64,000 bases of DNA from Parcubacteria group bacterium LiPW_15 (GCA_007375645.1 VMER01000001.1:209211-273210), one strand, 5' to 3'; positions 1-64,000 are shown, counted from the first letter of the stretch. Program-made: numbers and translations. Notes: generated from the sequence alone by a model not told the origin.

Positions 1-1
1 G

Positions 2-148
2 GCTTGCGCGATGGAGATCGAGGACGTTCTCTTCCAAGTCCTCCTTACCCGAATGAGAACGCACCTTGAGGACGGACTCGAAGTCTATGTCCAGATGCTC
101 TTCCAAGCGAAGGACGCGGACGAGTTCCTGAAGCATCTCACCAAGTAG
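2..148 (+). CDS. C-terminal fragment of a hypothetical protein (high GC), truncated by window start
   Basis: Open frame from window edge to TAG at 146-148; GC-rich codons; possible internal ATG at 11. Confidence 0.3.
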   Translation, partial: ACAMEIEDVLFQVLLTRMRTHLEDGLEVYVQMLFQAKDADEFLKHLTK

Positions 149-163
149 CAACGGAGGTTTGCA

Positions 164-517
164 ATGAATCGACGTCGAAAAGTTCACGGACTCACGCTCA
201 TTGAGGTTCTGGTCATCATCTGCATCTTGGGCATCATCGCCGCACTCGCTTCCGACGTCTTCCTGGAAGAAGGCTCAGGACAGGCAGTCGGCAGGATCGT
301 CTCAGTTCAGACGACGACCTCCGGCGAATACAGGATAACCCTTGCAAGCGGTAGCACGGCAGGGTTCAACTGGTCCCGAGACCTCCACACCAAGAACCGT
401 GCGCTGGCTGAGGAAGCAAAGTCCTACATGCTCCAACAGAAAATCGTTCTCGTGGAGTTCAAGCAAACAGCCCTACCCATCTGTCGCATCACAAACCTGA
501 AACTGCTCAAGGAGTAA
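164..517 (+). CDS. Type IV pilin-like / pseudopilin protein (prepilin-type N-terminal methylation motif)
   Basis: N-terminus ...HGLTLIEVLVIICILGIIAALA matches the G|FTLIE prepilin cleavage/methylation motif plus a hydrophobic helix; GGAGG RBS 8 nt upstream; high GC. Confidence 0.6.
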   Translation: MNRRRKVHGLTLIEVLVIICILGIIAALASDVFLEEGSGQAVGRIVSVQTTTSGEYRITLASGSTAGFNWSRDLHTKNRALAEEAKSYMLQQKIVLVEFKQTALPICRITNLKLLKE

Positions 518-605
518 CGAGGGTATCAACCCCAGACGAAACTCGAAGCCCCGGCGCAAGCCAGGGCTTTTATATTTTATTTCGATCAATCTAAAACTTT
601 TGAAA

Positions 606-2003
606 CTACTTTCTTGCCTCTTCGCGAAGAAGATCAATAAGCTTATCGGTCCTGACTCTTACCTGTTCCGCAGTGTCCCGGCTTCGAACCGTTACGGTTT
701 CGTCTTCAAGCGTTTGGAAATCGATAGTAATGCCGTAAGGGGTTCCTATCTCATCCTGCGAATAATAGCGCTTACCCACGTTTCCCCTATCGTCCCAGGC
801 GATCATAAATTCTTTTCTCAGTTCGTCATAAACTTCTTTGGCTTTTTCCACCAACTCAGGCTTGTTCTTTAAAAGCGGGAAAACCGCGGCTTTGTATGGA
901 GCGAGGTTGAACGGCAACTTTAAAACAGTGCGCTCTCCGTCTTCGTGGTAGGCCTCGCAAAGCACGGCCAAAAAAGTGCGGGTCAAGCCGAAGGAAGGCT
1001 CGATGCAGTGCGGAATGAATTTATTGCCCTCATCGTCGGTGTAATAAAGATCAGCGCCGGAATATTCGATGTGCTGTTTCAAGTCATAATCGGTACGATA
1101 GGCAAAGCCGTGAAGCTCGCCCCAGCCGAGGGACGGAAAATCGTATTCCACGTCATAAGTGTCTTTGGAGTAGAACGAACGCTCATTCTCGTCGTGGCGG
1201 CGCCACCGCATATTCTTATCGCTAAGCCCCAAGTCTTCGGCAAAGAATCTTTTTATCTCCGTCTGCCATTCCTCAAAGGGACGCTTCCAATCCTCTTCGT
1301 GTTTCGGAGGCGCGATGAAATATTCTATTTCCATCTGCTCGAATTCGCGGGTCCTGAAAATAAAATTTCCGGGAGTTATCTCATTCCTAAAAGCCTTGCC
1401 TACTTGGGCGATACCGAACGGCAGTTTCTTACGGCTCGTTTGGAGGACATTCTTAAAGTTTATGAAAATACCCTGAGCCGTCTCCCCTCTTAGATATGCC
1501 TTGGTTTTGGATTCATCCGTAGTTCCCACATAGGTTTCGAAAAGCAGGTTGAATTTCTTGGCTTCCGTCCAATCCGCTCCTCCGCAATTCGGACATTTTA
1601 TTTTCAAATCGTTAAGCTTGTTGCCGATATCTTCGAACTTTATCGCCGCAACCTCATTCACACCCAATTTTTCTTCCAAAAGTTTATCGCCCCGGTGACG
1701 GGTCTTACACTTTTTACAGTCGACCAAAGGATCGCTGAAATTGGAGACATGCCCAGAGGCTTCCCAAACCTTCGGGTTGGTGATAATCGCGGAATCCAGG
1801 CCCACTACATCGTCTCTCCGGTGCACAAAATTTTTCCACCAGACCTGGGCAATATTATTTTTGAGCTCGATACCCATCGGGCCGTAATCCCAGGAATTGG
1901 CGAAGCCGCCGTAAATTTCCGAACCCGGGAACACAAAACCGCGGCGCTTCGCCAAGCTTACTATCTTCTCCATTGATTCCGAACTGTTATTTGTATCGCT
2001 CAT
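606..2003 (-). CDS. glyQS: Glycine--tRNA ligase (class II, alpha2 type)
   Basis: 465 aa; class II aaRS motifs and GlyRS-like N-terminus (FPGSEIYGG, zinc-binding Cys cluster). Confidence 0.93.
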   Translation of the reverse strand: MSDTNNSSESMEKIVSLAKRRGFVFPGSEIYGGFANSWDYGPMGIELKNNIAQVWWKNFVHRRDDVVGLDSAIITNPKVWEASGHVSNFSDPLVDCKKCKTRHRGDKLLEEKLGVNEVAAIKFEDIGNKLNDLKIKCPNCGGADWTEAKKFNLLFETYVGTTDESKTKAYLRGETAQGIFINFKNVLQTSRKKLPFGIAQVGKAFRNEITPGNFIFRTREFEQMEIEYFIAPPKHEEDWKRPFEEWQTEIKRFFAEDLGLSDKNMRWRRHDENERSFYSKDTYDVEYDFPSLGWGELHGFAYRTDYDLKQHIEYSGADLYYTDDEGNKFIPHCIEPSFGLTRTFLAVLCEAYHEDGERTVLKLPFNLAPYKAAVFPLLKNKPELVEKAKEVYDELRKEFMIAWDDRGNVGKRYYSQDEIGTPYGITIDFQTLEDETVTVRSRDTAEQVRVRTDKLIDLLREEARK

Positions 2004-2015
2004 ATTTTTTGTGGT

Positions 2016-3743: not shown

Positions 3744-3865
3744 CCCGATTAGAAGCTAGTCGCAATTGCTCACGACTTTGCCGAAATTATAATTAATCAT
3801 GTCGACTATTATAGATTATTTTAGCATTTGGATGATCTAAAAGCGATTGCTGCTTCTAACGGGAC

Positions 3866-4357
3866 TCAGGCCAATTCAATTTTTTCTCCGCGGCTTCGGG
3901 CAGCGCAGGGACCGCAAAAAAAGTTCTGGCTTGCGATATGGAACGCGAAAACATTTCCCCGACCGCAATGTTCGCAAGAAGCATGTTCCGGATCCCAGCC
4001 CAAGATCGCCAATATCTTTCGCCAATCTTTAACGCCCGCGAGAAGCGTGGTCCAAAGATATTCGTCCGGTTCGCCTTCCGCCAAAACTCTTCCCAAAAGA
4101 TAGAAAAAATCCGGAGGTCCGGAGAGCTTTCCCCGTTTTAAAGCGTCCACCACCTGGAGACTTCCCTTCTCTATCATCCGGACGCGAATAAAATTACCCG
4201 GCTCAAGATGCGGAGAAAGTTTGGAGGTTATCTTCCTGGAGCTTTTTACTTTTGCCGAAAATTTTCCGAGGCTTCGCGTAAAAACCGCGACCCGCTCGTC
4301 GAGTTCGCCCTGGGGTTCTTTTTCTAAAACTATCGCTTCGCTTACATACTCATTCAT
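3866..4357 (-). CDS. recO: DNA repair protein RecO (short form)
   Basis: 163 aa; RecO N-terminal OB-fold-like region and C-terminal CxxC...CxxC zinc finger (CEHCG...CGPCA). Confidence 0.72.
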   Translation of the reverse strand: MNEYVSEAIVLEKEPQGELDERVAVFTRSLGKFSAKVKSSRKITSKLSPHLEPGNFIRVRMIEKGSLQVVDALKRGKLSGPPDFFYLLGRVLAEGEPDEYLWTTLLAGVKDWRKILAILGWDPEHASCEHCGRGNVFAFHIASQNFFCGPCAARSRGEKIELA

Positions 4358-4532
4358 ATTTGAATCGGTCCCATTACCTATAATTCTACCAGTTTTTGTG
4401 AGATTTAAGTATGAAAAAGGGCCCCAACCGGAGTTGGGACCCTGAGAAACCGAACCGAAGACAGTGAATGGGAATTACGCGCGGGGCAACCCGGAGTCGT
4501 AGTTCGGATCCGTGAGGAACTCCGCGATGCCT

Positions 4533-5027
4533 TCATCGCTGTCGAGGCGCACGACCCCGCATGCCCATGCCGGGTACGGCGTCTTCCTTGGAATGCTGGG
4601 GGTGCCGCTGTCCGCAGTCGATGCAGACAGGATCCATGAAGTAGACCTTCCAGCCCACGCCGATGGCGAGCTGGCCCAGTCCTCTGACCTTGAACACCGC
4701 GCGCATCTCGGTCAGGAGGAAGGCGTCCACGTCCTTGATCTTTTCGGCCAGGTCGGCAGCCTGGGCCACCCTCTCCTTGTCCGCCGGAGAAAGACCCCCG
4801 AGCAACCTGGAGACCATCTCCATCGTCGTGAGCTTGGACCCCTTCTCCTTGAGCTCAGCGTCCCAACGGTGACGCAGAGCCACGAGCTTCCGAAGGTTCT
4901 CCGGAAGGATGCCGAAGAAGTCGAGCTTCTGGTCCGGGATCGAGAGGCTCCGTTCCGCGGCGGCGATCTCCTCGAGGGTGACGGTCTCGGCCTCCGCGCC
5001 GAGAATGGTCGTGTACTTGAAGTCCAT
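4533..5027 (-). CDS. Hypothetical protein (high-GC cassette gene 1 of 3)
   Basis: 164 aa ORF with balanced composition; high GC; downstream hairpin plus T-run terminator at about 4395-4430. Confidence 0.5.
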   Translation of the reverse strand: MDFKYTTILGAEAETVTLEEIAAAERSLSIPDQKLDFFGILPENLRKLVALRHRWDAELKEKGSKLTTMEMVSRLLGGLSPADKERVAQAADLAEKIKDVDAFLLTEMRAVFKVRGLGQLAIGVGWKVYFMDPVCIDCGQRHPQHSKEDAVPGMGMRGRAPRQR

Positions 5028-5167
5028 CTGAACTTCCTACCTTTCTGCCCATTCTTGGGCGGTCGACGAACTGTGCGTATTATATTTAAATATACTTTTT
5101 TGTCAATAGATTATGAAAAGCGGCCCCCGTAGGGGGCCGCGTTGGCGGAAAGGAATGTGTTCGAAAC

Positions 5168-5584
5168 TCAGTTCACGGGGAGGGACTCGACCCAGCCGAG
5201 CTTCCACCCGGCTCGAAGGTCGACCGAGGACATTCCCCAAAGGATGGGGAATTCGTCCTTGGCCTGCCGGTCGAAGAACTTCTGGGCGAGTTCGTAAGAG
5301 CTCTCCACGCGAAGGTTCTTAAGGAAGAGTTCCCTGGGAATCTCTTCCCCGGCGTGAGCATCCATGAACTCGTCGGCATTCACATTGAGCATCACCAACT
5401 CTTGCTTGAGGTCAGCGATGACGCAGCGAAGCCGGATGAGAAGTTCGCTCGCCAGACCGACGGGATGGAAGATGCCTTCCTGATCTTCCGTCCGAGGATT
5501 GAGCTCGGCGGCACATTTGCTGATTTTGTCCGGCGAAACCGTGACGCAACGGAGCCAAAGCTCCTTGCCGAACGACAGTTCCAT
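5168..5584 (-). CDS. Hypothetical protein (high-GC cassette gene 2 of 3)
   Basis: Start chosen at MELSFG because AAGGAG RBS lies 8 nt upstream; ORF track shows a longer 5168..5626 form. Confidence 0.5.
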   Translation of the reverse strand: MELSFGKELWLRCVTVSPDKISKCAAELNPRTEDQEGIFHPVGLASELLIRLRCVIADLKQELVMLNVNADEFMDAHAGEEIPRELFLKNLRVESSYELAQKFFDRQAKDEFPILWGMSSVDLRAGWKLGWVESLPVN

Positions 5585-5726
5585 CTTCTCTTCTCCTTCT
5601 GCCCGCTTGGGGCAACTCTCTCTCAAAGAGCCGATTGCTATGTAACGACTATAAGTATACGGATTTATTTGATTTTGTCAACCATAATTTAAAAGGCCTC
5701 CGGTTTCCCGAAGGCCTGCGAAACGG

Positions 5727-6152
5727 CTACATCAGCTTATCGTTCTTTTGACTTGCCAAGCCGAAAAGCGCCTGGATCCCGATGGATGTCTGTTCGTTTT
5801 GTGCTTTAGCGCGGACTATCTTCCACCCGCTACGAAGGATGACTTCGTTGATTCCGGCTTCCCAGAATCTCAGTCGTTCCGTAATACGGAAGTCCATCTC
5901 TATCCTGATGATTCCCGCGCGGAAACGACAGAATGTCGCTTCAATATTGTCACCCCGTTTCTCGGCCTCGTCCCCCTCAAGGATGTAGTATGCCCACAGG
6001 TGGAAAAATCGTTTCTCGCCCTCAGTCATATCTCCGATTGGCTCTTCGTCCAAGCCAATCGGAGTATCTACTTCCACGTGGAGTTCGCCCAGATCTTTAC
6101 CAGCGAGTTCGTCATACATTCCGCCATCCAACCAGGACTCTGGCTCGTCCAT
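5727..6152 (-). CDS. Hypothetical acidic protein (high-GC cassette gene 3 of 3)
   Basis: 141 aa; GGGAGG RBS upstream of ATG at 6152; high GC. Confidence 0.5.
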   Translation of the reverse strand: MDEPESWLDGGMYDELAGKDLGELHVEVDTPIGLDEEPIGDMTEGEKRFFHLWAYYILEGDEAEKRGDNIEATFCRFRAGIIRIEMDFRITERLRFWEAGINEVILRSGWKIVRAKAQNEQTSIGIQALFGLASQKNDKLM

Positions 6153-6255: not shown

Positions 6256-6339
6256 GCACAGGTGGTAGAGCGGTCAAATACAAGAGACTGTAAATCTCTC
6301 GCCCATGTGGCTACGCAGGTTCGAATCCTGCCCTGTGCA
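6256..6339 (+). tRNA. tRNA-Tyr (anticodon GTA), long variable arm
   Basis: Manual fold: acceptor GCACAGG/CCTGTGC, 3-bp D-stem with GAGCGGTCAAA loop (nearly identical to E. coli tRNA-Tyr), anticodon stem AGAGA/TCTCT with loop CTGTAAA, long variable arm, T-arm GCAGG-TTCGAAT-CCTGC, discriminator A; CCA not encoded. Confidence 0.8.
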
Positions 6340-6462
6340 CAATATAAAGATTTTGCCCTTACGGTGGTGTCTCGTTGTGACATCGACAAACGTGTTCGAA
6401 TCTCCCGAGATTACTCGGGATTACGCATCTCTACGTCGCTACGCTTCAAGAGCTGCGAGAAC

Positions 6463-6867: not shown

Positions 6868-7308
6868 TTATAACTCTATCCTAGAAAAAGTGCGCACCTT
6901 AACATTCTCGCCGACTTTGGCGATAACCTCATTCACAATGTCTTTAACGGTTTTGCTTTCGTCTTTGATATAGGGCTGGGCCAAAAGCGCTTCAACATTT
7001 TCCGGCGCTGCGGCCGCTATCTGCATGGCAATTTCCCGAATCGCTTCTTTGAACGGATCGGAGTGGACAACAAAATCGGTCTCCGCGCGCATATCTACCA
7101 ATACGCCAATGCGATCGTTGTGAACATAAGAGAAGATCATTCCGGCTCCGGCCTCGCGGTCGGCCCTCTTTTCAACCTTAGAAAGGCCCCTTTCGCCGAT
7201 AAGCGCCACAGCCGCGTCAAAATCTCCCTTGGCGTCCGTGAGGGCTCTTTTGCAATCCATTACTCCGGCTCCGGTCTTTTCTCTTAATCTAACAATACTG
7301 TCGTCCAT
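6868..7308 (-). CDS. tsf: Elongation factor Ts (short form)
   Basis: 146 aa; N-terminal UBA-like MDCKRALTDAKGDFDAAV typical of EF-Ts; adjacent to rpsB as in the conserved rpsB-tsf operon. Confidence 0.85.
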   Translation of the reverse strand: MDDSIVRLREKTGAGVMDCKRALTDAKGDFDAAVALIGERGLSKVEKRADREAGAGMIFSYVHNDRIGVLVDMRAETDFVVHSDPFKEAIREIAMQIAAAAPENVEALLAQPYIKDESKTVKDIVNEVIAKVGENVKVRTFSRIEL

Positions 7309-8280: not shown

Positions 8281-9375
8281 TTATTCAATCACCCCTCCGC
8301 CGAGCATTATGTCATTTTTCACACCCTCCTTCGCTGAAGCTTCGGAGGGCAAGTAAATGACCGCGGATTGGCCGGGGGCCACGAACTTCTGAGATTTTTT
8401 AAAATCCAATCTCCATCCTCCTTTTTCCTTGACCAAAACAGCCGGGAATAAAGGCTGGCGATAGCGAACACGGGCGGATACTTCAAGAGGATAGTGAATA
8501 GTAGATGGCGAATAGTTGAAATTTACGTCGGTAAGATAAACGGATTTTTCATAAAGAGCAGGATTATCGCTACCCTCCGCGACTACCAGAATATTTTTCT
8601 TCACATCTTTTTTGGCTACATAAAGAGGAACATGGTTTTTTTGGCCCTTCTCATGCTTTAAGTTTCCCACTCCGCCACGCTGGCCGATAGTATAAAAATG
8701 AGCACCAAAATGTTCCCCCACCTTTTCTCCCTTCAAGTTCAAAACCGCGCCTTTTTTCTCCGGAAGATAACTCTTCAGAAAATCTTTAATGGAGACCATG
8801 CCTAAAAAGCATATTCCTTGCGAGTCTTTTTTCTCCGCCGTGGATATTCCGGCTTTTTTGGCGATTTTTCTCACCTCCGGCTTCAGATAATCCCCTATCG
8901 GGAAAAGGGATTTCTCTATCTGCTTCGCGGTCAGAGTCCACAAAAAATAGCTTTGGTCCTTATTCTTGTCCGCGGCGATAGCCAAAGAATTATTTTTCTT
9001 TTTAACGTAATGTCCGGTAGCCACAAAATCGGCCCCGAGCCTCATCGCCCTATCGAAAAATATTCCGAATTTTATCTCCCGGTTGCACATCACATCCGGA
9101 TTCGGGGTAAGGCCTTTCTTATATCCGGCGACCATATAATCCACCACATGTCTTTTATATTCTTTTTCAAAATCCCAAGTGTAAAACGGGATGCTTAAAT
9201 GTTCCGCCACTCGGCGCGCGTCTTCCGCGTCTCGGTCTTGGCAGTTATCTATGTTATAGCCGCGAATAAAAACACCGACTACATCGTAGCCTTGTTTCTT
9301 AAGTAAATACGCGGCAACGGAGCTATCCACTCCCCCCGACATACCGACAAAAACTTTTTTCTTGGCCTTTTTCAT
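8281..9375 (-). CDS. mnmA: tRNA-specific 2-thiouridylase MnmA
   Basis: 364 aa; PP-loop SGGVDSS, catalytic Cys motifs, MnmA domain order. Confidence 0.93.
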   Translation of the reverse strand: MKKAKKKVFVGMSGGVDSSVAAYLLKKQGYDVVGVFIRGYNIDNCQDRDAEDARRVAEHLSIPFYTWDFEKEYKRHVVDYMVAGYKKGLTPNPDVMCNREIKFGIFFDRAMRLGADFVATGHYVKKKNNSLAIAADKNKDQSYFLWTLTAKQIEKSLFPIGDYLKPEVRKIAKKAGISTAEKKDSQGICFLGMVSIKDFLKSYLPEKKGAVLNLKGEKVGEHFGAHFYTIGQRGGVGNLKHEKGQKNHVPLYVAKKDVKKNILVVAEGSDNPALYEKSVYLTDVNFNYSPSTIHYPLEVSARVRYRQPLFPAVLVKEKGGWRLDFKKSQKFVAPGQSAVIYLPSEASAKEGVKNDIMLGGGVIE

Positions 9376-9456
9376 TGCCGCAGGATTATACGATAATTTT
9401 ACAAAATTGAAAAGAAAAGGAGCCCCCGAAGGGGCTCCGAAAAGAACCTGGAAACG

Positions 9457-10692: not shown

Positions 10693-10800
10693 GGTTTTCC
10701 CCTTTCAAGTTGCAACTTATTGCTGCGTTCATACTAAACTTTGAGTTTTTAAAAAACAAGAAAGGCCCCCGACGTGAGTCGGGAGCCAAGGTGCAGTGAA

Positions 10801-13596: not shown

Positions 13597-13760
13597 TTGG
13601 CATACCTCCTTTTCGTTTCTTCTTTTCAGTTGTCAGGCTGCTGATTTCATTCTAGGCAAAACTGAGTCGACCGCAATAGCTCCGAAACAAATATGGATTA
13701 AAAACAAAAGCCCCGCGAATGTCGAGTGACTCTCGCGGGGCTTTTACAATTATTTTTTAT

Positions 13761-14330: not shown

Positions 14331-14431
14331 CGGTCTTATTAAAATTTGTTCGCGACAGCCTTGTCATGATACCAAAATAAATATTTTTGTCCACCAAACA
14401 AAAAATCACCCCGTTCGGAGTGATTCTTTGC

Positions 14432-14728
14432 CTATTCTGTCGGAGCGGCCGGCGCCTCCGGTCTCTCAAAAGTCGAACCTTCGGGTTCTTCGATTTTCAG
14501 ATTCACCCGAGCATTATTTTTCATACCGACAATCCTCAAAAGCGAACGGATGGCCTTGGCGGTCGAACCTTGGCGGCCGACGACTTGGCCCATGTCTTGC
14601 GGATGCACTCGGAGCGTCAAAAGTACGCCTTGTTCGTCTATTCTGCGTTCAATCTTAATATCATCCGGGTGGTCAACCAGAGCCTTTACAAGGCTCGATA
14701 GAAATTCCTGATCTGCGGTGTTATTCAT
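14432..14728 (-). CDS. KH-domain RNA-binding protein (UPF0109/YlqC-like)
   Basis: KH motif VGRQGSTAKAIRSLL; canonical position downstream of rpsP; start chosen at MNNTADQ. Confidence 0.7.
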   Translation of the reverse strand: MNNTADQEFLSSLVKALVDHPDDIKIERRIDEQGVLLTLRVHPQDMGQVVGRQGSTAKAIRSLLRIVGMKNNARVNLKIEEPEGSTFERPEAPAAPTE

Positions 14729-14798
14729 TTTTAAATAGAATTCGCGACCTTTCAAAAAACATACGACCCACAACCAACAACTTACAACCTAAACCGAA

Positions 14799-52537: not shown

Positions 52538-55153
52538 TTATAAGCGTTTATATTGGCGATGGAAAAATCTCTTTGCAGCTTCAACGAGGGCGATGCTCAA
52601 TAAGCCCATCGATAGAACGCCCAAAAGCCAATATCCGGACAGGGAAACCGTTCCGAACACGGTCTGGAGAAACGGAACATAGATCGCGCTCGCCATAAGC
52701 ACCAATCCGATTCCAACTCCGACAACCATATAGCGATTGGAAAACGGAGAATACTTGAAAATACTTCTATCGAAACTCCTGACCGAAAACGCCAGGAATA
52801 GCGTGTAAGTTCCGAAGCTCGCGAAAATAAATGTTCTTACAACCTCCGGCACGAAACCCATTTGCAACAAGGTCCAATAAAGGGCGAATAACAACACGCT
52901 CGTCGACAAACCTATGAATATTACCAAAAATCTCGTAAGCGGATCGAAGAGCTTTACCCCGGACCCGCTCGTGCGTATCGCATGCCGTCCGTCGGTCCCT
53001 TTTTCAAACGCGAACGCGACCGCCGGAAAACTATCCGAAAAAAAGTTTACCCAAAGGATCTGGAGCGCGCTTAAGGGCAATGCTATGCCGGCCAACAATG
53101 ATCCGCCGATAAGAACAAGTTCGTCCGCAACGCTCGAAAGAAGATAAACCAAAACCCTTCTTAAGTTGTTCATTATCTGCCTCCCCTCCTCCACCGCCGC
53201 GGCTATGGTTTCAAAGTTGTCGTCCAATAAAACTAGGTCCGCCACGTCGCGAGCCACTTCCGTTCCGGAGCCCATGGCTATGCCGATATCCGCCTGCTTA
53301 ATGCTTGGAGCGTCGTTCACTCCGTCGCCGGTCATGGCCACAACCTCCCCGAGTTCTTGAAACGCCTTAACTATCTTCATCTTATCCATGGGCGACACCC
53401 GAGAGATCACCTTAAGCGCGGGCAATCTGTTTTTTAACTCTGCGTCCGTAAGCGCGCGAAGTTCTACCGCATCAATAACACTCCCCTCGGCAAGCTCCAT
53501 GCCGACCTCCTTCGCGATCGCTTCGGCAGTGCCGCGATGGTCGCCGGTCACTATCAGAACTTTTATGCCGAATGACTCAACGCGCCTGATGGCATCTTTG
53601 ACGCTCGGTCGGATCGGATCTTTGAGCGTGATGAGGCCCCTAAAGGTCATCCCTGCAAAATCGAAATCATCCGCGAAGCTGAAGTCTTCTTTCTCCGCTA
53701 TCTCTTTGGTGGCAACTCCCAAGACAAGTTCTCCGGACGCGGCAAGAGAGCCGATCTTTTGGAGCATAGCCTCCTTTTCTTTATCGCCCAGATTGGAGCG
53801 TTCCGCTAAGATATCCGGGGCTCCAAGACAAATTACTGCGTGTTTCCCGTCCACACGTGTAAGTGTGGCGGAAAATTTATTTACCGCGTTGAACGGCAAG
53901 GAATTTAAGATATCCATCTCTTTTTTTATTCCCTCGATCGAAGTTCCAAGGGTGGCTGCGGATCGGACCAAGGCGGTTTCCAGAGCGCGTCCGCTCATCC
54001 GCCATTCAAGCGGCGGGTCGTTCGGATTCTCGATTATTACATTCGTGTTGATAAGAGCCATCCGAAGAAGTTCTTTCTCGCTGCCGCCGGCCGGCAGCAC
54101 TTTGTCGAGTTCCATTTTTGCCATAGTAAGAGTGCCGGTTTTGTCGGTGAGAATTATAGTAGTGCTCCCGAGAGTTTCCGCGGCGACAAGCTTGCGCACA
54201 ACTCCTTTACGTTTAACCATGCGCTGCACCCCGACCGCCAAAATCACGGTCATTGCAACCGGCAGGCCCTCCGGTATCGCAGAGACCGCGATCGCCACCG
54301 AAGTAAGGAACATATCGAGCTTGGAGTATCCGGAAGCTATGCCCACAACAAAGATCATCGCCGTGAGGATTGTTAAAAATAATCCCGCGTGGATACTGAA
54401 GCGTTCAATGGCATGCTGAAGCGGGGTTTCTTCGCTTTGGGATTCCGCGACAAGTGCGGCGATTTTTCCGAGCTCGGTCAAAAAATCCGTGCGGCAAACT
54501 ACTGCTGTTCCGACGCCTTGAGTGACGAGCGTTCCGGCAAAAACCATAGAAAGCTGATCGCCCAAAGCGGAACTTATATCCACCACCGAAACATCTTTGG
54601 AAACCGGCAAGGATTCACCGGTAAGTATCGCTTCATCGGCCTGAAAATCGTTCACGAAAACTAACCTGCCATCGGCGGGTACTCGGTCTCCCTGGGTCAA
54701 ACGGACAATATCTCCGGGAACCAGATTCGCGGCTTCAATTTCGCGCTCAACGCCTCCGCGGATAACCCGCGCACGTTGCTTTAGATATGTTTTGAGTTCT
54801 TCGAGCGCCTTCTCCGCTTTGAATTCCTGGTAAAAACCCAGGGCAACATTCACGACAACCGCGGACAGGATAAAGAACATATCCCGATAGTGCGAAATAA
54901 AAAAAGTAACTCCGGCCGCAAACGCCAGAATAAGTATGAGCGGACTCTTAAATTGATTTATAAGGGTCGCAAGCCAAAATACTTTTTTGGGTTTTTCTAT
55001 GATATTGGCCCCGCAAACAGCGAGCCTTATCTTTGCTTCCGCTTCGGACAAACCGGTCTTAAGATCGGTTTGCAGCGCTTTCATGGTTTCCTCACCGGAA
55101 AGCGCCCAAAACGGACGCGCCTCTATTTCTCGTGTTATTTTCTGATATCCCAT
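52538..55153 (-). CDS. P-type cation-transporting ATPase (type IIA/Ca2+-ATPase-like)
   Basis: DKTGTLT phosphorylation site, TGDGVNDAPS hinge, 10 TM, N-terminal cation-ATPase domain. Confidence 0.9.
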   Translation of the reverse strand: MGYQKITREIEARPFWALSGEETMKALQTDLKTGLSEAEAKIRLAVCGANIIEKPKKVFWLATLINQFKSPLILILAFAAGVTFFISHYRDMFFILSAVVVNVALGFYQEFKAEKALEELKTYLKQRARVIRGGVEREIEAANLVPGDIVRLTQGDRVPADGRLVFVNDFQADEAILTGESLPVSKDVSVVDISSALGDQLSMVFAGTLVTQGVGTAVVCRTDFLTELGKIAALVAESQSEETPLQHAIERFSIHAGLFLTILTAMIFVVGIASGYSKLDMFLTSVAIAVSAIPEGLPVAMTVILAVGVQRMVKRKGVVRKLVAAETLGSTTIILTDKTGTLTMAKMELDKVLPAGGSEKELLRMALINTNVIIENPNDPPLEWRMSGRALETALVRSAATLGTSIEGIKKEMDILNSLPFNAVNKFSATLTRVDGKHAVICLGAPDILAERSNLGDKEKEAMLQKIGSLAASGELVLGVATKEIAEKEDFSFADDFDFAGMTFRGLITLKDPIRPSVKDAIRRVESFGIKVLIVTGDHRGTAEAIAKEVGMELAEGSVIDAVELRALTDAELKNRLPALKVISRVSPMDKMKIVKAFQELGEVVAMTGDGVNDAPSIKQADIGIAMGSGTEVARDVADLVLLDDNFETIAAAVEEGRQIMNNLRRVLVYLLSSVADELVLIGGSLLAGIALPLSALQILWVNFFSDSFPAVAFAFEKGTDGRHAIRTSGSGVKLFDPLTRFLVIFIGLSTSVLLFALYWTLLQMGFVPEVVRTFIFASFGTYTLFLAFSVRSFDRSIFKYSPFSNRYMVVGVGIGLVLMASAIYVPFLQTVFGTVSLSGYWLLGVLSMGLLSIALVEAAKRFFHRQYKRL

Positions 55154-58053: not shown

Positions 58054-58434
58054 CTATTCTTCAGAACAGTGATAGATCTCAAGACGTATTTCGTCGGGGT
58101 CATCAAGCCATACGTATCTATTTCCAAACTTTCCAACCTTAAACTCACTGTGCTTGATCCCAGCCTCAGAAAGAAACTGTTCAAACTTTTCCAGTTCATC
58201 CAGAGTCCGGACACCAAACCCGATATGATTCATTCCAACATCGTCCTTGTCGTAATTTGGGCTTGGGGTCCCTTTCGGACTTAGCTTGAAGTACAATTTT
58301 ACATCGCCAATTTTATAAACCACCAGATTATCATTACGGAGAGTTGGTTCACCTAAAAACTTAGAATAAAATTCTTCCGTTCTAGACAGATCTTTCACTA
58401 TTAATGATATGTGATCGATAAAGTTTGGCTTCAT
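58054..58434 (-). CDS. VOC family (glyoxalase-like) protein
   Basis: 126 aa; VOC fold signature. Confidence 0.72.
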   Translation of the reverse strand: MKPNFIDHISLIVKDLSRTEEFYSKFLGEPTLRNDNLVVYKIGDVKLYFKLSPKGTPSPNYDKDDVGMNHIGFGVRTLDELEKFEQFLSEAGIKHSEFKVGKFGNRYVWLDDPDEIRLEIYHCSEE

Positions 58435-58453: not shown

Positions 58454-61027
58454 CTACTTCCCATGGCATTTCTTATACTTTTTCCCCGATCCGCACGGAC
58501 AAGGATCATTCCTGCCTACTTCCTTGGCGCCCGAAGCTTTGGGCAAGATCTTTACAACCTGTTCCGCGGGCTTTTGTTCCTGAGCCTGACCCGGAGGCGG
58601 GAGCTTGAAGATATTCATAAATATCCAGGCTCCAAAATTAGCCCAAAAAGCTTGATAAAGCGTATGCGCTTCTCCTCGATATTCCACGAGCGGATCGCGT
58701 TGTCCGTAAGCCCTAAGTCCGATGGATTCCGAAAGCGCGTCCAAGTCCTCCAAGTGGTTCATCCAAAGCATGTCCAAAATGCCTAGCATTTGGTTCGCCG
58801 CCAAAGGATGCTTGGCCATCACGGAAACGCGCGCCTTCAAGAACTCCGATAGATTTTCTTCCGTCGCATCTTCCGGATATGGATTTTCCTTATTGGCCAA
58901 TCCGACTTCTTCAAATATTTTTTTTAGGTCCGGCTTTTCTACTTCTGGCATATTCTCCGCGGCCGCTATTCCGGCTGAAAGATTTTTAAAATAACCGTTC
59001 ACCGCGTCGAATATCATGGGTTCCAGAGTCTCCGAATTCATCGCCGTCAATATTTCCTGTCGGCGCTTATAGACCGCCGCCCGATGCTTATTCAAGACAT
59101 CATCGTAGTCGAGCAGGTGTTTCCTCATATCGAAATTCGCCCCCTCAACTTTGGATTGGGCTTCTGCCACGGCGCGGGAAATCATAGCCACATCGATCGG
59201 CTCGTCATCGGGAAGATGGAATCTGTCCATTAGGGACTTTATGCGGTCTCCGCCGAAAATGCGCAGCAAGTCGTCTTCCAGCGACAGGAAGAATTGCGAA
59301 GAACCGGGATCGCCCTGCCTGCCGGCGCGGCCGCGCAGCTGATTGTCTATGCGCCTGGCCTCGTGCCTTTCCGTACCAGTCACATGAAGTCCGCCCAATT
59401 CTCGCACCCGCTTCGCATCTTCCGGTGTCGGCGGATTGCCGCCCAGAATTATGTCCACGCCGCGGCCGGCCATGTTGGTCGCCACGGTTATCGCCCCCGG
59501 CTTACCGGCCTGGGCGACTATCGCTCCCTCCCGTTCATTGTTCTTCGCGTTCAAAGTTTCGTGCGGGATATGCGCCTCGCTTAGCAAATTGTCCAAAAGT
59601 TCGTTCTTAGCAATGGAAGTTGTGCCAACCAAAACCGGCTGGCCCTTTTCGTGCCGTTCTTTTATATCGTTGACCAAAGCTATCCAACGCGCGGCGGAAG
59701 TTTTGTATATGACATCTTTGTGATCATTTCTTATGACCGGCTTGTTCGGAGGAATGCTAACAACTTCCAAATTGTAAACTTTGGAAAATTCTTCCGCGGA
59801 AGTCTGCGCGGTTCCGGTCATGCCGGAGATCTTCTTATACATGCGGAAATAATTCTGAATGGATATCTTTCCGTAAGTCTTGGACTCTTCCTGCACATGC
59901 ACGCCCTCCTTGGCCTCAATCGCCTGGTGTAAGCCGCCGTTATACCGCCTGCCGTGAAGCATTCGGCCGGTGAATTCGTCCACGATAATTATCTCTCCGT
60001 TCTTGACCACATATTCTTTATCCTTATGAAAAAGCGCCTTGGCTTTAAGACTTTCTTCCAAATAATGGACCAGGCGCAGATTCTCGGGCGAGTAAAGATT
60101 ATCGACGCCCACCATTTTTTCCACCTTGGCGATTCCCTCTTCGGTTATGGAAACCGAGCGGCGCTTCTCATCCACCTCGTAATCCTCAGGCGCGTTTAGG
60201 TTGATAACCAGTCTCGCAAAGGTTTTATAGAACTGGCTGGATTCCGCATCCGGCGCAGAAATAATTAGCGGGGTTCTGGCCTCATCGATCAAAATAGAAT
60301 CCACTTCATCGATTATGGCAAAAGGAAATCCCCGCTGGACCTGTTCGGTTACCCGGTAGACCAGATTGTCGCGCAGATAATCAAAACCGAATTCGTGATT
60401 GGTTCCGTAAGTAACATCGGCGAGATACGCTTCGCGCCTGGACGCGGGCCGCAAGAATTCCGATTGCACGCGGAAATTTCCGGTAGTGTCTTCTTCTTTG
60501 TCGATAAGCGCTTGGGCATCCTTCGCAACCTCATAGTCCGGGTCATACAAAAAAGCGGTGTTCGGCACGAGGCAGGAAACCGTAAGTCCCAGCGCGCGAT
60601 ATATCTGGCCCATCCAGACCGCATCGCGGCGAGCCAAGTATTCGTTTACCGTGACCACATGCGCGCCGTGTCCGTAAAGCGCATTCAAATAAACCGGCGC
60701 AACGGCGGTCAGAGTCTTTCCTTCTCCGGTTATCATTTCCGCGACCGCTCCCTTGTTCAAAACCAGTCCGCCGATAAGCTGCACATCGTAGGGTCGCTGT
60801 CCCAAGGTTCGCTTCGCGGCTTCGCGGACAAGAGCGAAAGCGCGCGGCAAAACCAGCCGCTCTTCTTCGCCGCTTTGCAGTCGTTCTCGAAGCTTCAAAC
60901 TCTCCGCCTTCAATTCCTCGCCGGTCAACTTCTGTATTTCCGGTTCGAGCGAATTTACTTCGGCTACAATTGTTTCGAAATCCGCGAGCGTTCTGCGCTC
61001 AAATATTTTTTTTATGAACCCAAGCAT
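58454..61027 (-). CDS. secA: Preprotein translocase ATPase SecA
   Basis: 857 aa; DEAD-like motor, PPXD, C-terminal zinc finger CPCGSGKKYKKCHG. Confidence 0.95.
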   Translation of the reverse strand: MLGFIKKIFERRTLADFETIVAEVNSLEPEIQKLTGEELKAESLKLRERLQSGEEERLVLPRAFALVREAAKRTLGQRPYDVQLIGGLVLNKGAVAEMITGEGKTLTAVAPVYLNALYGHGAHVVTVNEYLARRDAVWMGQIYRALGLTVSCLVPNTAFLYDPDYEVAKDAQALIDKEEDTTGNFRVQSEFLRPASRREAYLADVTYGTNHEFGFDYLRDNLVYRVTEQVQRGFPFAIIDEVDSILIDEARTPLIISAPDAESSQFYKTFARLVINLNAPEDYEVDEKRRSVSITEEGIAKVEKMVGVDNLYSPENLRLVHYLEESLKAKALFHKDKEYVVKNGEIIIVDEFTGRMLHGRRYNGGLHQAIEAKEGVHVQEESKTYGKISIQNYFRMYKKISGMTGTAQTSAEEFSKVYNLEVVSIPPNKPVIRNDHKDVIYKTSAARWIALVNDIKERHEKGQPVLVGTTSIAKNELLDNLLSEAHIPHETLNAKNNEREGAIVAQAGKPGAITVATNMAGRGVDIILGGNPPTPEDAKRVRELGGLHVTGTERHEARRIDNQLRGRAGRQGDPGSSQFFLSLEDDLLRIFGGDRIKSLMDRFHLPDDEPIDVAMISRAVAEAQSKVEGANFDMRKHLLDYDDVLNKHRAAVYKRRQEILTAMNSETLEPMIFDAVNGYFKNLSAGIAAAENMPEVEKPDLKKIFEEVGLANKENPYPEDATEENLSEFLKARVSVMAKHPLAANQMLGILDMLWMNHLEDLDALSESIGLRAYGQRDPLVEYRGEAHTLYQAFWANFGAWIFMNIFKLPPPGQAQEQKPAEQVVKILPKASGAKEVGRNDPCPCGSGKKYKKCHGK

Positions 61028-61460: not shown

Positions 61461-61489
61461 TTGACTTTTTAATAGATTGGTGCTATAAT
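61461..61489 (+). promoter_or_regulatory. Sigma70-like promoter TTGACT-17-TATAAT (copy 1 of a duplicated about 50-bp promoter module)
   Basis: About 80% identical over about 50 bp to 62433..62480. Confidence 0.5.
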
Positions 61490-61608
61490 TACACCAGATG
61501 CTTGAGATGCGTTTTGGTTCCGGAGTAATGGGCCTGCCTGCCGGTAGGCAGGGGCAATCCAGACTTATTATTCCGGAACTGAATAAACATACAGGAAAAG
61601 GAGTCAGA

Positions 61609-61737
61609 GTGAGACGTCTCACCGATTTCCGCGCCATGGTTGTGGCCGCAATCGCCTTCTCGGCGATCTATTACGCTCTCGTTTCAGTGGCGGAACTGTG
61701 TAAGGCCGCCATCGAACTGCTGAAAGCCATCTGCTAA
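61609..61737 (+). CDS. Small hydrophobic peptide (42 aa, GTG start)
   Basis: AGGAG 5 nt upstream of GTG; predicted single/double TM; the ORF track shows a longer 61498 form with no RBS. Confidence 0.4.
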   Translation: MRRLTDFRAMVVAAIAFSAIYYALVSVAELCKAAIELLKAIC

Positions 61738-61779
61738 TTCTAGCCTGACACAACCCACGGTTTAGGAAGGAGAACGAAC

Positions 61780-62343
61780 ATGAACACGCTGAAGATGAGC
61801 AGGGAGGCAAAGAGCTTCGTGGCCATCCTCCTCGGAGTGCTCGGCATCGGATTGACCATCCTCTGGATGGTCGAGACGAACCAGAAGATGGTCATCGAAG
61901 CTCGACAGAGCTCCGCCGTCCAGGATCTCGATCCCGGCAACTTCGTTCACGACGAGCACGAGCTCGTCATCCGCTACGGCAGCCTGAACGGCGTGCCCGT
62001 GGAGATGGTTCGGGACTACACGCACGGAGGACTCGTCCTTCGCGCTGTCCTCCCGGACAAGGATGACCCGCTCGCCAGCCCCGCCCTCGACGCTCTGAAA
62101 GCGGAAGTCATCCGCCTCTGCTCCTCGAAGGAGCCTGTTCCCCTCGGGGACACGGGGTACACCTTCCTGTTCACCGGGGTATGTGACCCCGAGTGGGCAC
62201 CCTACACCACGATCGAGTCGGCGAGAAACACGAGGAACATCCGCTTCATCCGATGGGTCGAACCGATCATCGGAAACGCCATCCGGGGTGGAGGCTCATG
62301 CGATACGAGCTACCGCCCCGCCGGCTACTCCGTGAAAAGGTAA
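61780..62343 (+). CDS. Hypothetical membrane-anchored protein (187 aa, high GC)
   Basis: GGAAGGAG RBS; N-terminal TM then soluble domain with 3 Cys. Confidence 0.55.
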   Translation: MNTLKMSREAKSFVAILLGVLGIGLTILWMVETNQKMVIEARQSSAVQDLDPGNFVHDEHELVIRYGSLNGVPVEMVRDYTHGGLVLRAVLPDKDDPLASPALDALKAEVIRLCSSKEPVPLGDTGYTFLFTGVCDPEWAPYTTIESARNTRNIRFIRWVEPIIGNAIRGGGSCDTSYRPAGYSVKR

Positions 62344-62364
62344 TCGCCCTTCGCCTCACCCCCC

Positions 62365-62403
62365 GCCCGCACAGAAACTTCAAAGCCTGTGCGGGCTTTT
62401 TTA
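62365..62403 (+). terminator. Intrinsic terminator GCCCGCACAG...CTGTGCGGGC plus T6
   Basis: Seen directly. Confidence 0.6.
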
Positions 62404-62434
62404 GTTCAAAAATAAAAACGCCATTGGCATATGC

Positions 62435-62463
62435 TTGACCTTTACATAGATTAATGATATAAT
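62435..62463 (+). promoter_or_regulatory. Sigma70-like promoter TTGACC-17-TATAAT (copy 2 of the duplicated module)
   Basis: Sequence match; paralogous to 61461..61489. Confidence 0.5.
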
Positions 62464-62511
62464 CGCGCCAGATGTTTGAGACACGATAACTCGACAAAAG
62501 GAGGAAGGCTC

Positions 62512-62976
62512 ATGTCCTTCAAAATGCATGTTGTCAACGTCATCACGACTCTGGTCGAGACCGCGCTTCCGCGGTTCTCGGGCGAAAAGAAGCTTCTTTA
62601 CGTTCTTATCGAAGCCGGAGTGACAAAAGAGAAGGTTGCGGTGCCCAGCCACCGCCGGTTCATCCACCTCCTCTTCCACCGGCCCGGCAACCACACGGCC
62701 GTCATGGTGGCCGTGACCGACAACCCCCACTTTCGCAAAGAAGAAATGAAAGACTGGCGGGTGGTTTCCTGCCACGATTCCTGCTGGAGGTCGGATGGCG
62801 TGGAAAGTCCGCTCTCCAAGCTATACTTCGAGATGTGCAAGGAGGTCGATTCGGCGGCTGCGCCCAGAGACCTTTGGGCGACTGCCCAGTTCTCGATCTT
62901 CGATAGCCCAAAGGTGGTGGAAGTGAAGAAGTTCACCCACGACCGCGAAAACTTCATCGCCCACATCGAGTGGTAA
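62512..62976 (+). CDS. Hypothetical protein (155 aa, high GC)
   Basis: AAAGGAGGAAGG RBS upstream of ATG (MSFKMHVV); the ORF track shows a longer 62476 form. Confidence 0.55.
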   Translation: MSFKMHVVNVITTLVETALPRFSGEKKLLYVLIEAGVTKEKVAVPSHRRFIHLLFHRPGNHTAVMVAVTDNPHFRKEEMKDWRVVSCHDSCWRSDGVESPLSKLYFEMCKEVDSAAAPRDLWATAQFSIFDSPKVVEVKKFTHDRENFIAHIEW

Positions 62977-62989
62977 CAGGGAGAAGACG

Positions 62990-63283
62990 ATGAAAACCAA
63001 GATCAAGGAATACCAACTTCTCGGTGACAAATCCGCAGCCCCGCGCCTGATCCAGTTCAAAGGACGAGAGCTGGTGGTCAGGCAGAAGAAGACCGACGAA
63101 GTATCCGGGATCGACTACGTAATCGTCCCCGGATTCAAGGTCGGAGGACCGCACGCCTCCACTTCCAGGTACTTCACGACCCTTCAGGCCCTCGACGTGG
63201 AACTGGTCGGAAACGACGATCGGGAAGCGATCAAACAGCTCCTCCGGGAGCTCGGATTCAAGGGCCCGATCAGCTTCTGGTGA
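62990..63283 (+). CDS. Hypothetical protein (97 aa, high GC), operonic with 62512
   Basis: AGGGAGAAG RBS; 13-nt gap to the upstream gene. Confidence 0.5.
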   Translation: MKTKIKEYQLLGDKSAAPRLIQFKGRELVVRQKKTDEVSGIDYVIVPGFKVGGPHASTSRYFTTLQALDVELVGNDDREAIKQLLRELGFKGPISFW

Positions 63284-63287
63284 CAGC

Positions 63288-63340
63288 CGCCCCCGCAAGG
63301 AAACTCATCCAAAGCCCATGCGGGGGCTTTTTTATTTTAA
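63288..63340 (+). terminator. Intrinsic terminator (CCCCCGCA...TGCGGGGG plus T-run)
   Basis: Seen directly. Confidence 0.5.
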
Positions 63341-63393
63341 AAAACAAAACCGGCCTTTCGGCCGGTGGAAATTGGGTTGGGATAAGAAGCACC

Positions 63394-63612
63394 CTAGCTT
63401 GACGTCATGCCACCCGTGGAGTCCGCGTCGGGAAGAGCGATGAGGCGGAGCAAGAACTCAGTGTTCGTGACGATGTTCTGCGCAAGCGGCTCCCACCGCA
63501 GCGCTTCGGCCTTGTGATGACCATAGTTCCTGTCATCCAGGATTCGCCTGTAGTCGGCCAACTCGACCTTTATCTTCGCGAGCCTTTCTGCGTCTTCTTT
63601 CGTCATTTTCAC
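63394..63612 (-). CDS. Small hypothetical protein (72 aa, high GC)
   Basis: ORF with a GGAGGGAG-like RBS region upstream; coiled-coil-like. Confidence 0.4.
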   Translation of the reverse strand: MKMTKEDAERLAKIKVELADYRRILDDRNYGHHKAEALRWEPLAQNIVTNTEFLLRLIALPDADSTGGMTSS

Positions 63613-63728
63613 TCCCTCCTTTGGAGCTGACTAATTTATATATCCCGGAATCAACCGCTGTCAAACAAATTAAATCTCCAATTCAAGGCGCTTGAAAAGC
63701 GGCTCTCGGTCTCTATGGGTCCATTTTC

Positions 63729-63870
63729 CTGAACGGCCGCGGAACGCCACAGATCCACTGTGGATCCGAATGGTGACCTCCTATCTGTTTGTTTTAGATG
63801 AATGAGTGCTCTCTTCGGATCCACACTGGATCCATAAATTGAGCACTTCCACGGCCGTTCGCGAAAATCG
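63729..63870. repeat. Long imperfect palindrome (two about 70-bp arms), each arm containing a GGATCCAC(T/AC)TGGATCC sub-palindrome
   Basis: The left arm aligns with the reverse complement of the right arm (gaacggccg...ggatccactgtggatccgaa); a further inverted pair ctatctgtttg / caaacagatag lies at 63779 and 63958. Confidence 0.4.
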
Positions 63871-64000
63871 ACTGTTTTTATACTAGCAAATATCTATCCT
63901 CAAGTGAAGAAGCTCCCCGATCCATAAAACTAAAACCCCCCGGAGGGGGTTTTAGTACAAACAGATAAAATAGAAACAGGTCTAAGTCGATATCATCGTT

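Follow-up and report, generated by a model that had tools for sequence, protein, structure and literature searches.

Autonomous accessory gene units with a coding style of their own between the housekeeping operons of a Parcubacteria chromosome

Introduction

How does a streamlined bacterial chromosome come to carry GC-richer genes with their own expression signals between its housekeeping operons? This question is raised by a stretch of 64,000 nucleotides from Parcubacteria group bacterium LiPW_15 (GCA_007375645.1 VMER01000001.1:209211-273210), which was analysed at its full length and is called the window throughout. All relatives found for its TypA and UvrA proteins belong to the Candidate Phyla Radiation (CPR, Patescibacteria) and there to the Parcubacteria/Paceibacteria group. 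CPR bacteria have very small genomes in which many genes are unexplained and few mobile elements can be recognised, and how they gain and test genes is poorly understood. The original prediction, made from the sequence of the window, described at least 12 cassettes of one or two genes inserted between housekeeping genes. The class proved to be real, and its size was corrected to about 17 transcription units. In our opinion the window is probably an ordinary streamlined Parcubacteria chromosome carrying about 17 autonomous accessory units at operon boundaries; these would stem from a flexible gene pool rich in C at third codon positions (C3) and using Shine-Dalgarno (SD) sites, and would be swapped by recombination.

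Two gene classes differ in composition and codon usage

A total of 63 window genes were curated, with core genes assigned by family searches. The searches confirmed tsf, rpsB, mnmA, efp, rpsP, typA, uvrA, uvrB, uvrC, queA, tgt, secA and hpf as core genes; the glycine tRNA ligase, first read as glyQS, is of the dimeric single-chain type. Core genes are found on one strand, in tight operons, without SD sites and in conserved order. About 25% of the window is cassette coding sequence. The values for GC content, GC at third codon positions (GC3) and the arginine share R/(R+K) were as follows.

Cassette genes (n=19): GC 0.58, GC3 0.72, R/(R+K) 0.52
Core genes (n=37): GC 0.47, GC3 0.54, R/(R+K) 0.39
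Other genes for hypothetical, secreted or membrane proteins (n=7): GC 0.47, GC3 0.53, R/(R+K) 0.27

The window thus contains two clearly distinct gene classes (cassette versus core composition, Mann-Whitney p-value of about 1e-7), and the cassette genes differ sharply in composition from the backbone, as had been proposed. In sliding windows the segments pointed out as GC-richer reached a GC content of 0.54-0.72 over a background of about 0.42-0.50. This was found for 10 of the 11 segments; the remaining one (21075-22145) has an overall GC of only 0.47-0.51, though its gene shows a GC3 of 0.64.

The shift is specific for C. In two-fold NNY codons C/(C+T) was 0.81 in cassette versus 0.43 in core genes, with a nearly clean split: cassette genes were found at 0.58 or above and core genes at 0.59 or below. 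The sole tie, at 0.58, is between repeat310 and hpf, and the core gene at 0.59 encodes an MFS transporter and is itself a replaced slot gene. At the third position C3 alone was increased (0.41-0.44 versus 0.25) with G3 unchanged, equally for cassette genes on both DNA strands. Among individual codons the cassette/core fractions were 0.86/0.41 for TTC, 0.76/0.33 for TAC, 0.78/0.43 for AAC, 0.80/0.33 for ATC, 0.45/0.13 for CTC and 0.75/0.44 for AAG, and the GCG and CCG fractions were lower in cassette genes than in the core. AAG is preferred to AAA, and arginine is raised relative to lysine. The dinucleotide distance delta* between cassette and core genes was 192, compared to 22 +/- 7 for random core partitions and 54 between cassette halves, a measure that in coding DNA is not independent of the codon shift.

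Two other sources of the GC excess were considered and rejected. The makeup of secreted and membrane proteins does not explain it, since the 7 non-cassette hypothetical and membrane genes show core composition (GC3 0.53). Rapid evolution was rejected as well, as the FAD oxidase is only 56% identical to its homologue on contig L001 and yet has a GC3 of 0.53.

Expression signals and orientation separate the same classes

Strong SD site (SD/anti-SD free energy dG of -7 kcal/mol or lower): cassette 18/19, core 3/37 (Fisher p 1e-10)
Promoter match of at least 10/12 within 150 nt: cassette 11/19, core 3/37 (Fisher p 1e-4)
Hairpin with T-run, dG of -12 or lower: cassette 14/19, core 6/37 (Fisher p 6e-5)
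Location on the + strand: cassette 10/19, core 0/37 (Fisher p 3e-6)

Nearly every cassette had been credited with a promoter, an SD site and a terminator of its own. The strong enrichment of all three was confirmed, with an even sharper contrast than had been described, and most units carry both promoter and terminator; at the cutoffs used, the promoter was found for 11 and the terminator for 14 of the 19 cassette genes. Strong SD sites were absent from all 7 other hypothetical genes. Random background amounts to 7%, and as the core genes show no SD signal above it, we conclude that the core uses no SD site. Several core first genes carry a TATAAT-like box 6-12 nt upstream of the start codon (e.g. 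18604, 9375, 61372), which suggests that core transcripts may be leaderless. Two genes, for a P-ATPase (52538-55153) and a glyoxalase (58054-58434), combine core-like composition with strong SD sites.

The same split was observed in relatives. Slot genes of contigs L169, L177, L089, L086 and L087 had a GC3 of 0.64-0.76 and SD sites with a dG of -7.7 or lower, in contrast to the core genes there. A link between SD site and GC3 as a general trait of the Paceibacteria was rejected: over 73 other loci (Paceibacteria and others) the mean difference was 0.004, which makes the link a trait of this lineage. At a general level, small islets acquired horizontally and located at operon boundaries are not new; the contrast of an SD-less core with SD-led flexible genes is the most interesting result of this analysis.

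Stem sequences had also been reported as reused between cassettes. The short matches are real, but the match at 13689-13762 is the terminator of efp, which is a core gene, and most strong terminators share generic GGGGC/GCCCC stems. True duplicates of terminators or promoters were found at 42285-42325/42526-42569, 62360-62402/63291-63333 and 61461-61489/62435-62463.

Units are gained, lost and replaced between relatives

A close relative from Rifle groundwater, represented by contigs L089, L169, L170 and L177, shares 97% (UvrA) and 100% (TypA) amino acid identity with the window. On L089 the primase fusion of the window is missing, and a 79-aa open reading frame (ORF) with its own SD site and terminator is located between uvrA and the patatin gene instead. 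On L169 hyp196 is missing: window position 19436 is joined directly to 18662, with both junctions in terminator T-runs. Window positions 61584-62496, comprising c61, are missing in L177 and L178, where one promoter and leader run straight into c62, versus two diverged promoter copies around c61 in the window. Replacement was observed too. In the exact shell of the window MFS gene, L169 contains a 196-aa GNAT gene. The two sequences are homologous on the left as far as the SD site/ATG and become so again 40 nt ahead of the GNAT stop codon, so that a GNAT stub survives in the window (19517-19478). The L169 slot of c24a holds a 118-aa homologue with 38% identity. Slot genes of the Rifle relative are again GC3-rich (0.64-0.74).

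The backbone order tgt-exo-uvrA-uvrC-hyp173-hyp152-typA is kept even in L006 (74% TypA identity), with short gaps at the unit sites; the gap between exo234 and uvrA, the site of units 12 and 13 in the window, measures only about 530 bp there. Relatives that keep the housekeeping synteny and lack individual cassettes, as proposed for a check, do exist. Atypical composition and patchy distribution among close relatives, which together mark horizontally acquired accessory genes, were both found here.

Insertion of all cassettes, as originally claimed, goes too far. It fits hyp196, c61 and the primase fusion with their patchy distribution, but the largest segment (9400-13650, unit 5) is an old, inherited gene pair: hyp931 and mem411 follow efp on L001, L086, L087 and L088, are present in all close relatives examined, and show the same GC3 step in those four (0.65-0.76 versus 0.48-0.58). 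Distant hyp931 homologues in genomes of 41-42% GC have host-like GC3, and one homologue of the primase fusion also matches its own genome in GC.

A recombination mosaic with scars at the junctions

Nucleotide identity to the Rifle relative varied from 74% to 98% across neighbouring genes. Synonymous divergence (dS) of the window from this relative was 0.038 for repeat310, 0.13 for AI-2E, 0.27 for typA, 0.41 for the FAD oxidase, 0.90 for uvrA, 1.38 for hyp152 and 2.36 for c24a; against L177 it was 0.054 for c63 and 0.74 for c62. Among adjacent genes of two near-neighbour genomes dS thus spans an about 60-fold range (0.04 to 2.4). This gene-to-gene spread marks the window as a mosaic of tracts with differing histories, in which units, whole or in part, were in some cases exchanged very recently, and it implies very frequent homologous recombination among diverged lineages.

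Scars are visible at several junctions. A tract of 95% identity (23968-20727) ends exactly at one of them, where the first 48 nt of typA (23920-23967) are duplicated 278 nt upstream (24198-24245) with 81% identity. The upstream copy carries what looks like the original typA promoter. The ORF of the working typA copy opens 22 codons further upstream, and this extension matches other Parcubacteria TypA genes. Altogether, duplicates of 40-55 nt bracket three insertions, at the typA 5' end, the c62 promoter and the c41 terminator. Identity between the copies, where measured (typA 5' end, c62 promoter), amounts to 81-83%, a level to be expected had one of them been brought in on DNA of a related donor species. 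The c61 terminator is 100% identical over 43 nt to the c63 terminator of L177. From these traces we infer homologous recombination in the flanks combined with an occasional illegitimate join.

No integrase or transposase was found among the window ORFs scanned against Pfam or NCBIfam (63 tabulated, several short cassette ORFs remaining unscanned), and neither an attC-like motif, a conserved attachment site, a flanking direct repeat nor a short target duplication was detected at the units. Of the recombination-driven cargo-insertion mechanism that had been suggested, the recombination stands, given the dS spread, the scars and the differing cargo in the gaps; no sign of a dedicated machinery was seen.

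The individual units

Positions are those of the window; CDS stands for coding sequence.

164-580, + strand: unit 1, pilin-like gene of 117 aa (CDS 164-517) with Pfam N_methyl motif, GC3 0.67, SD GGAGG (dG -10.7), terminator (dG -17.3) about 57 nt downstream of the gene; no promoter was found inside the window
4418-5106, - strand: unit 2, par1, 164 aa (CDS 5027-4533), promoter 5106-5079 (TTGACA-16-TATAAT, 12/12), terminator 4443-4418, GC3 0.84; no match in Pfam, PHROG or PADLOC
5120-5681, - strand: unit 3, par2, 138 aa (CDS 5584-5168), promoter 5681-5654 (11/12), terminator 5140-5120
5694-6152, - strand: unit 4, par3, 141 aa (CDS 6152-5727), terminator 5717-5694, SD dG -10.5, GC3 0.60 and marginal composition; adjoins tRNA-Tyr (6256-6340, + strand)
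9419-13700, - strand: unit 5, hyp931 (CDS 13596-10801, terminator 10787-10764, GC3 0.76) and membrane protein mem411 (CDS 10692-9457, terminator 9438-9419, GC3 0.77)
15136-15968, + strand: unit 6, secreted trypsin-like protein of 250 aa (CDS 15186-15938), promoter 15136-15164, terminator 15946-15968; also in the Rifle relative (L169, 85% amino acid identity) and L001 (39%)
18663-19435, - strand: unit 7, hyp196 (CDS 19333-18743), promoter 19419-19391, terminator about 18690-18663, GC3 0.77
19444-20726, - strand: unit 8, MFS transporter (CDS 20724-19534) of intermediate composition (GC3 0.64, SD dG -10.9), then the last 40 nt of a GNAT gene (19517-19478) and the GNAT terminator (19469-19444)
21077-22141, - strand: unit 9, repeat310 (CDS 22052-21120) with six tandem 93-nt (31-aa) repeats (21214-21726), promoter 22141-22113 (12/12), terminator 21094-21077; the protein was found at 90% identity or more on at least eight other metagenome contigs
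23968-25012, + strand: unit 10, c24a (24404-24751) and c24b (24762-24968), promoter 24317-24346, terminator 24990-25012; neighboured by the relic typA promoter and first 16 codons (24198-24323, - strand)
30087-32974, + strand: unit 11, primase fusion of 900 aa (CDS 30225-32927), SD AAGGAGG, hairpin shared convergently with uvrA
35792-37692, + strand: unit 12, secreted collagen-repeat protein of 549 aa (CDS 35993-37642), promoter 35792-35820, terminator 37673-37692; peak GC 0.72, in part from Gly-X-Y repeats
37699-38615, + strand: unit 13, secreted sec259 (CDS 37794-38573), promoter 37699-37727, terminator 38594-38615
41674-42587, + strand: unit 14, c41 (41774-42268) and a 50-aa two-helix membrane ORF (42362-42514), promoter 41674-41703 (12/12, with TG), GC3 0.82, terminator hairpin doubled (42285-42325 and 42526-42569)
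61461-62399, + strand: unit 15, c61 (61780-62343), promoter 61461-61489, leader with palindrome 61533-61552, terminator 62382-62399
62435-63330, + strand: unit 16, c62 (62512-62976) and c63 (62990-63283), second promoter copy 62435-62463, terminator 63311-63330
63349-63660, - strand: unit 17, c63b, 72 aa (CDS 63612-63394), terminator 63366-63349, GC3 0.75, SD AAGGAG

The cassette ORFs are real genes under relaxed purifying selection. For most of them the ratio of nonsynonymous to synonymous divergence (dN/dS) was 0.17-0.31, e.g. 0.17 for unit 5 and 0.21 for the trypsin-like protein (versus L169); c63 reached 0.75 on few changes, and the values are above those of the core. Signal peptides or transmembrane segments were found in only about 6 of 19 proteins (pilin-like, mem411, trypsin-like, collagen-repeat, sec259 and c61), the others looking cytoplasmic, which contradicts the view that cassette proteins are often secreted or membrane-bound. 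The signal-peptide coding regions of units 12 and 13 (35988-36073, 37789-37874) are 78% identical, their mature parts unrelated.

Nor are all of these proteins orphans. The hyp931/mem411 family comprises 34 members, all on Parcubacteria-like contigs. The predicted structure of hyp931 is confident (pLDDT 87), and its fold bears only a weak resemblance to metallophosphoesterases. The primase fusion joins a Cas4/RecB-like PD-(D/E)XK nuclease to a DnaG-type primase without the helicase-binding tail, and its N-terminal half matches no Pfam model. A word-indexed search returned the primase fusion itself only, whereas a full HMMER scan yielded at least 135 clusters of about 900 residues; orphan calls from the word-indexed search are therefore unreliable. 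The orphan label still applies to most small cassette proteins, which have no detectable relatives beyond near-identical copies. Between par1, par2 and par3 there is a single weak C-terminal motif, G..(L/I)R.GWK, so that paralogy of the three would be weakly supported at most (E = 0.005). PHROG and PADLOC scans of 10 cassette proteins gave the primase domain as the only match, and scans of viral contigs with the primase fusion, its family profile and the hyp931 profile found nothing.

Where do the units come from?

In the explanation we favour, each unit would consist of one or two ORFs driven by a sigma-70-type promoter, preceded by a leader that holds a strong SD site and closed by an intrinsic, GC-rich terminator. 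It would originate from a flexible pool with a coding style distinct from the core: C-ending codons, AAG over AAA, more arginine versus lysine and SD-led initiation. Entry would not have been simultaneous: some units would predate the diversification of the genus and be slowly approaching core composition, and others differ between near-neighbour species. Turnover would proceed by uptake of DNA from related lineages and homologous recombination in the conserved flanks. One end may sometimes join illegitimately at short matches (terminator T-runs, SD site/ATG), and this would leave a diverged 40-55-nt duplicate of the flank, be it promoter, terminator or gene 5' end. Units would persist only at operon boundaries because other sites would break an essential operon. 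Lying outside any operon, about half of them in the opposite orientation, they would depend on a promoter, SD site and terminator of their own. The mosaic as such is real, and known processes explain it in outline.

The history of hyp931 fits an old import in slow amelioration with GC seemingly decaying. At 4-fold sites conserved in four orthologues, singleton changes from G or C to A or T (S>W) outnumbered the reverse (W>S) by 47 to 23 (p = 0.006), with an implied equilibrium GC4 of 0.59 near the core value of 0.61; we are aware that parsimony polarisation at such divergence inflates common-to-rare changes.

Besides this bias, several points weigh against our explanation. A mild bias toward C-ending codons is also seen in native translation genes (hpf, rpsB, typA, rpsP: 0.53-0.58), and part of the codon signal could reflect selection rather than ancestry. 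No donor was identified, most of the small cassette proteins having no relatives beyond the copies mentioned above. As the relatives of hyp931 and the primase fusion are confined to similar small genomes, "foreign" may mean just "from other Parcubacteria". The primase fusion, the youngest-looking unit, has one of the lowest GC3 values (0.65) and hyp931, the oldest, 0.76, an order not predicted by a single-donor amelioration clock. No competence genes were noticed in the window, where they were not specifically examined, and uptake by transformation is likewise inferred. Finally, one 64-kb window and short contigs of relatives were available.

As the cause of the C-ending codon bias, foreign ancestry is favoured, with selection for expression as the alternative. 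In its full form, this alternative regards the units as native, very highly expressed genes in which translational selection created C-ending codons along with strong promoters, SD sites and terminators. We consider it a serious but unlikely candidate. In its favour, the shift is C3-specific with unchanged G3 and follows the sense strand on both DNA strands, native translation genes occupy the top of the core C/(C+T) range, promoters, SD sites and terminators are strong alike, and hyp931/mem411 are stably inherited. However, genes for ribosomal proteins and elongation factors reach only 0.38-0.58 versus 0.65-0.96 in all but one cassette gene. Units come and go between close relatives, their orientation is random as opposed to 37/37 co-oriented core genes, and their dN/dS exceeds that of the core. 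The amino acid shift and the S>W excess of hyp931 also point away from selection.

A bolder reading would see two expression regimes in one cell, an SD-independent, partly leaderless core and circulating promoter-SD-ORF-terminator modules, SD-led and rich in C-ending codons, whose ORFs are exchanged in reusable shells by recombination at shared expression signals. This would amount to a recombinase-free chromosomal cassette system, perhaps shared with unsampled phages or plasmids, and appears unlikely to us.

Quite unlikely is a dedicated cassette system without integrase in which SD sites and terminator hairpins themselves serve as recombination sites and ORFs are swapped in reusable shells. 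The junctions gave rise to this idea: the MFS/GNAT swap begins at the SD site/ATG with the old terminator kept, c61 sits in a duplicated copy of the c62-c63 promoter and ends in the terminator sequence of the L177 c63 gene, the 50-aa ORF of unit 14 is flanked by duplicated terminator hairpins, and the hyp196 junctions lie in T-runs. But only four or five junctions were seen and their types vary case by case. Divergence between the duplicates is 15-20%, in keeping with delivery of one copy on donor DNA; no conserved core site was found, the generic GC-rich stems are also used by core genes such as efp, and the scan of window ORFs described above revealed no recombinase.

GC-biased gene conversion at recombination hot spots, raising the GC of slot genes in place, is very unlikely. 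Recombination is evidently frequent, and among core genes GC3 is highest in typA, the core tract exchanged most recently. Conversion is strand-symmetric, though, and yet C3 alone rises; the net S>W flux in hyp931 runs the other way, and a GC3 shift of 20-30 points together with the SD and orientation differences would stay unexplained.

A chimera from assembly or binning, or an engineered construct, as the source of the mosaic (an option raised by the original prediction) has a practically negligible probability: only the sharp compositional steps speak for it, while window 8324-23596 (15,273 bp with four units) matches an independent Logan assembly of SRR8863432 (contig L081) at 100%, the efp/hyp931 junction was found again in contigs of four other data sets (L001, L086, L087, L088), further units reappear in Rifle-aquifer metagenomes, unit junctions are shared by JGI, ENA and Logan contigs of other sites, and the units are under purifying selection alongside their flanks, so that this option is excluded for the checkable parts.

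Significance of the findings

The flexible genes of this window are recognisable from sequence alone by a strong SD site, C-ending codons and free orientation. Should this hold genome-wide and in other lineages, it would offer a simple marker of the accessory genome for uncultured CPR bacteria, a hint at the origin of flexible genes and a natural case of two translation-initiation styles per cell. The junction scars provide concrete cases in which recombination has replaced genes in an uncultivated symbiont-like bacterium.

Further elements of the window

Between the patatin gene and uvrC a non-coding stretch (28906-29167, - strand; L089:3607-3867) is 95% identical to the Rifle relative, compared to 77-87% for the flanking genes. 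It contains a near-consensus promoter (29010-28983) and a duplicated motif TGGTGAC(A/G)GGGTTGAC, and about 600 nt without a convincing ORF (28382-28980) follow the promoter. Rfam gave nothing in 28300-29300; the stretch may represent an unknown small RNA or leader. A perfect 21-nt inverted repeat (28331-28351/28446-28466), its arms 94 nt apart, straddles the uvrC start.

A hairpin-forming intergenic repeat of 63 nt occurs between core genes in two 86% identical copies, 42840-42902 (ogt/truB) and 44210-44272 (nth/tRNA-binding gene), and related CCGTTAGA...TCTAACGG ends were found at 3853-3862 and L177:134-250. It looks like a small element of the repetitive extragenic palindromic (REP) or miniature inverted-repeat transposable element (MITE) type. 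The palindrome CCTGCCTGCCGGCAGGCAGG or its half occurs in uvrC (27895-27914), secA (59314-59325), the c61 leader (61533-61552) and L177 (about 1370-1390), with 5 matches versus 0.23 expected. A longer shared element around it was rejected, nothing longer being common around the copies.

At the window end (63760-64000) a structured-looking non-coding element GGATCCGAATGGTGACCTCC...GAGTGCTCTCTTCGGATCC was observed, with two or three tandem, partly diverged copies in L177:1500-1950. Several housekeeping proteins are unusually short, i.e. a RecO-like protein of 163 aa (3866-4357), EF-Ts of 146 aa (6868-7308), UvrC of 460 aa (26999-28381) and UvrA of 845 aa (32974-35511), which fits CPR genome reduction.

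Comparison with known systems

The original prediction held that the window resembles neither a classical genomic island, a prophage nor an integron array, and this was borne out by the missing defining features of each. A classical island is a block of more than 10 kb at the 3' end of a tRNA gene with integrase and direct repeats, while the units measure 0.3-4.3 kb, are dispersed, and lie on the 5' side only of the sole tRNA gene (Tyr, 6256-6340). No phage structural or lysogeny genes were found in the window; the sole PHROG match was the primase domain, and three viral-contig scans with two protein families were negative. With integron arrays the units share small, mostly single-gene content of unrelated functions and a hairpin-forming end. 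Integron cassettes, in contrast, are promoterless, co-oriented and collected in a single array next to intI/attI, whereas the units have their own promoters, occur in both orientations (10/19 turned) and are dispersed; their hairpins, which have T-runs and share no core, are ordinary terminators, and no intI or attC-type motif was found among the ORFs and sites scanned, several short cassette ORFs excepted.

Homology-facilitated illegitimate recombination during natural transformation is established in Acinetobacter and Streptococcus. One end is anchored in a homologous flank and the other joined at a short match, which places foreign DNA beside a donor-type tract. The typA 5' duplicate at the edge of the 95%-identity tract and the duplicated c61 promoter bear a likeness to this process, known here from sequence traces.

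Horizontal gene transfer in groundwater Patescibacteria occurs, according to one study, mostly among Patescibacteria and covers up to 13% of genome length (PMC12455944). The individually transferred genes and small genomic islands described there come from the same phylum and the same habitat as the units. In the passages considered, the study describes neither an SD, promoter and terminator split nor slot-by-slot replacement scars like those found here.

The closest anatomical counterpart is the phage moron, a single ORF with promoter and terminator located between genes adjacent in related phages and deviating in nucleotide composition (PMC4378225). The units share with morons the sequence of promoter, one or two ORFs and intrinsic terminator, and a composition off from that of the neighbours (here GC3 0.72 versus 0.54, delta* 192 versus a null of 22). 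Both lack recombinase sites, and the acquisition mechanism is unclear in both. Location between genes that are adjacent in relatives was found for hyp196, c61 and the primase fusion, but not for hyp931/mem411. Unlike morons, some units are old and inherited, and the host is a bacterial chromosome with housekeeping operons (glyS, tsf, rpsB, efp, typA, uvrABC, secA) and not a phage or prophage. Good known analogues of the units hence do exist: individually transferred Patescibacteria genes (PMC12455944) and phage morons (PMC4378225) both fit, and the anatomy of the units matches that of morons in every feature but the host replicon.

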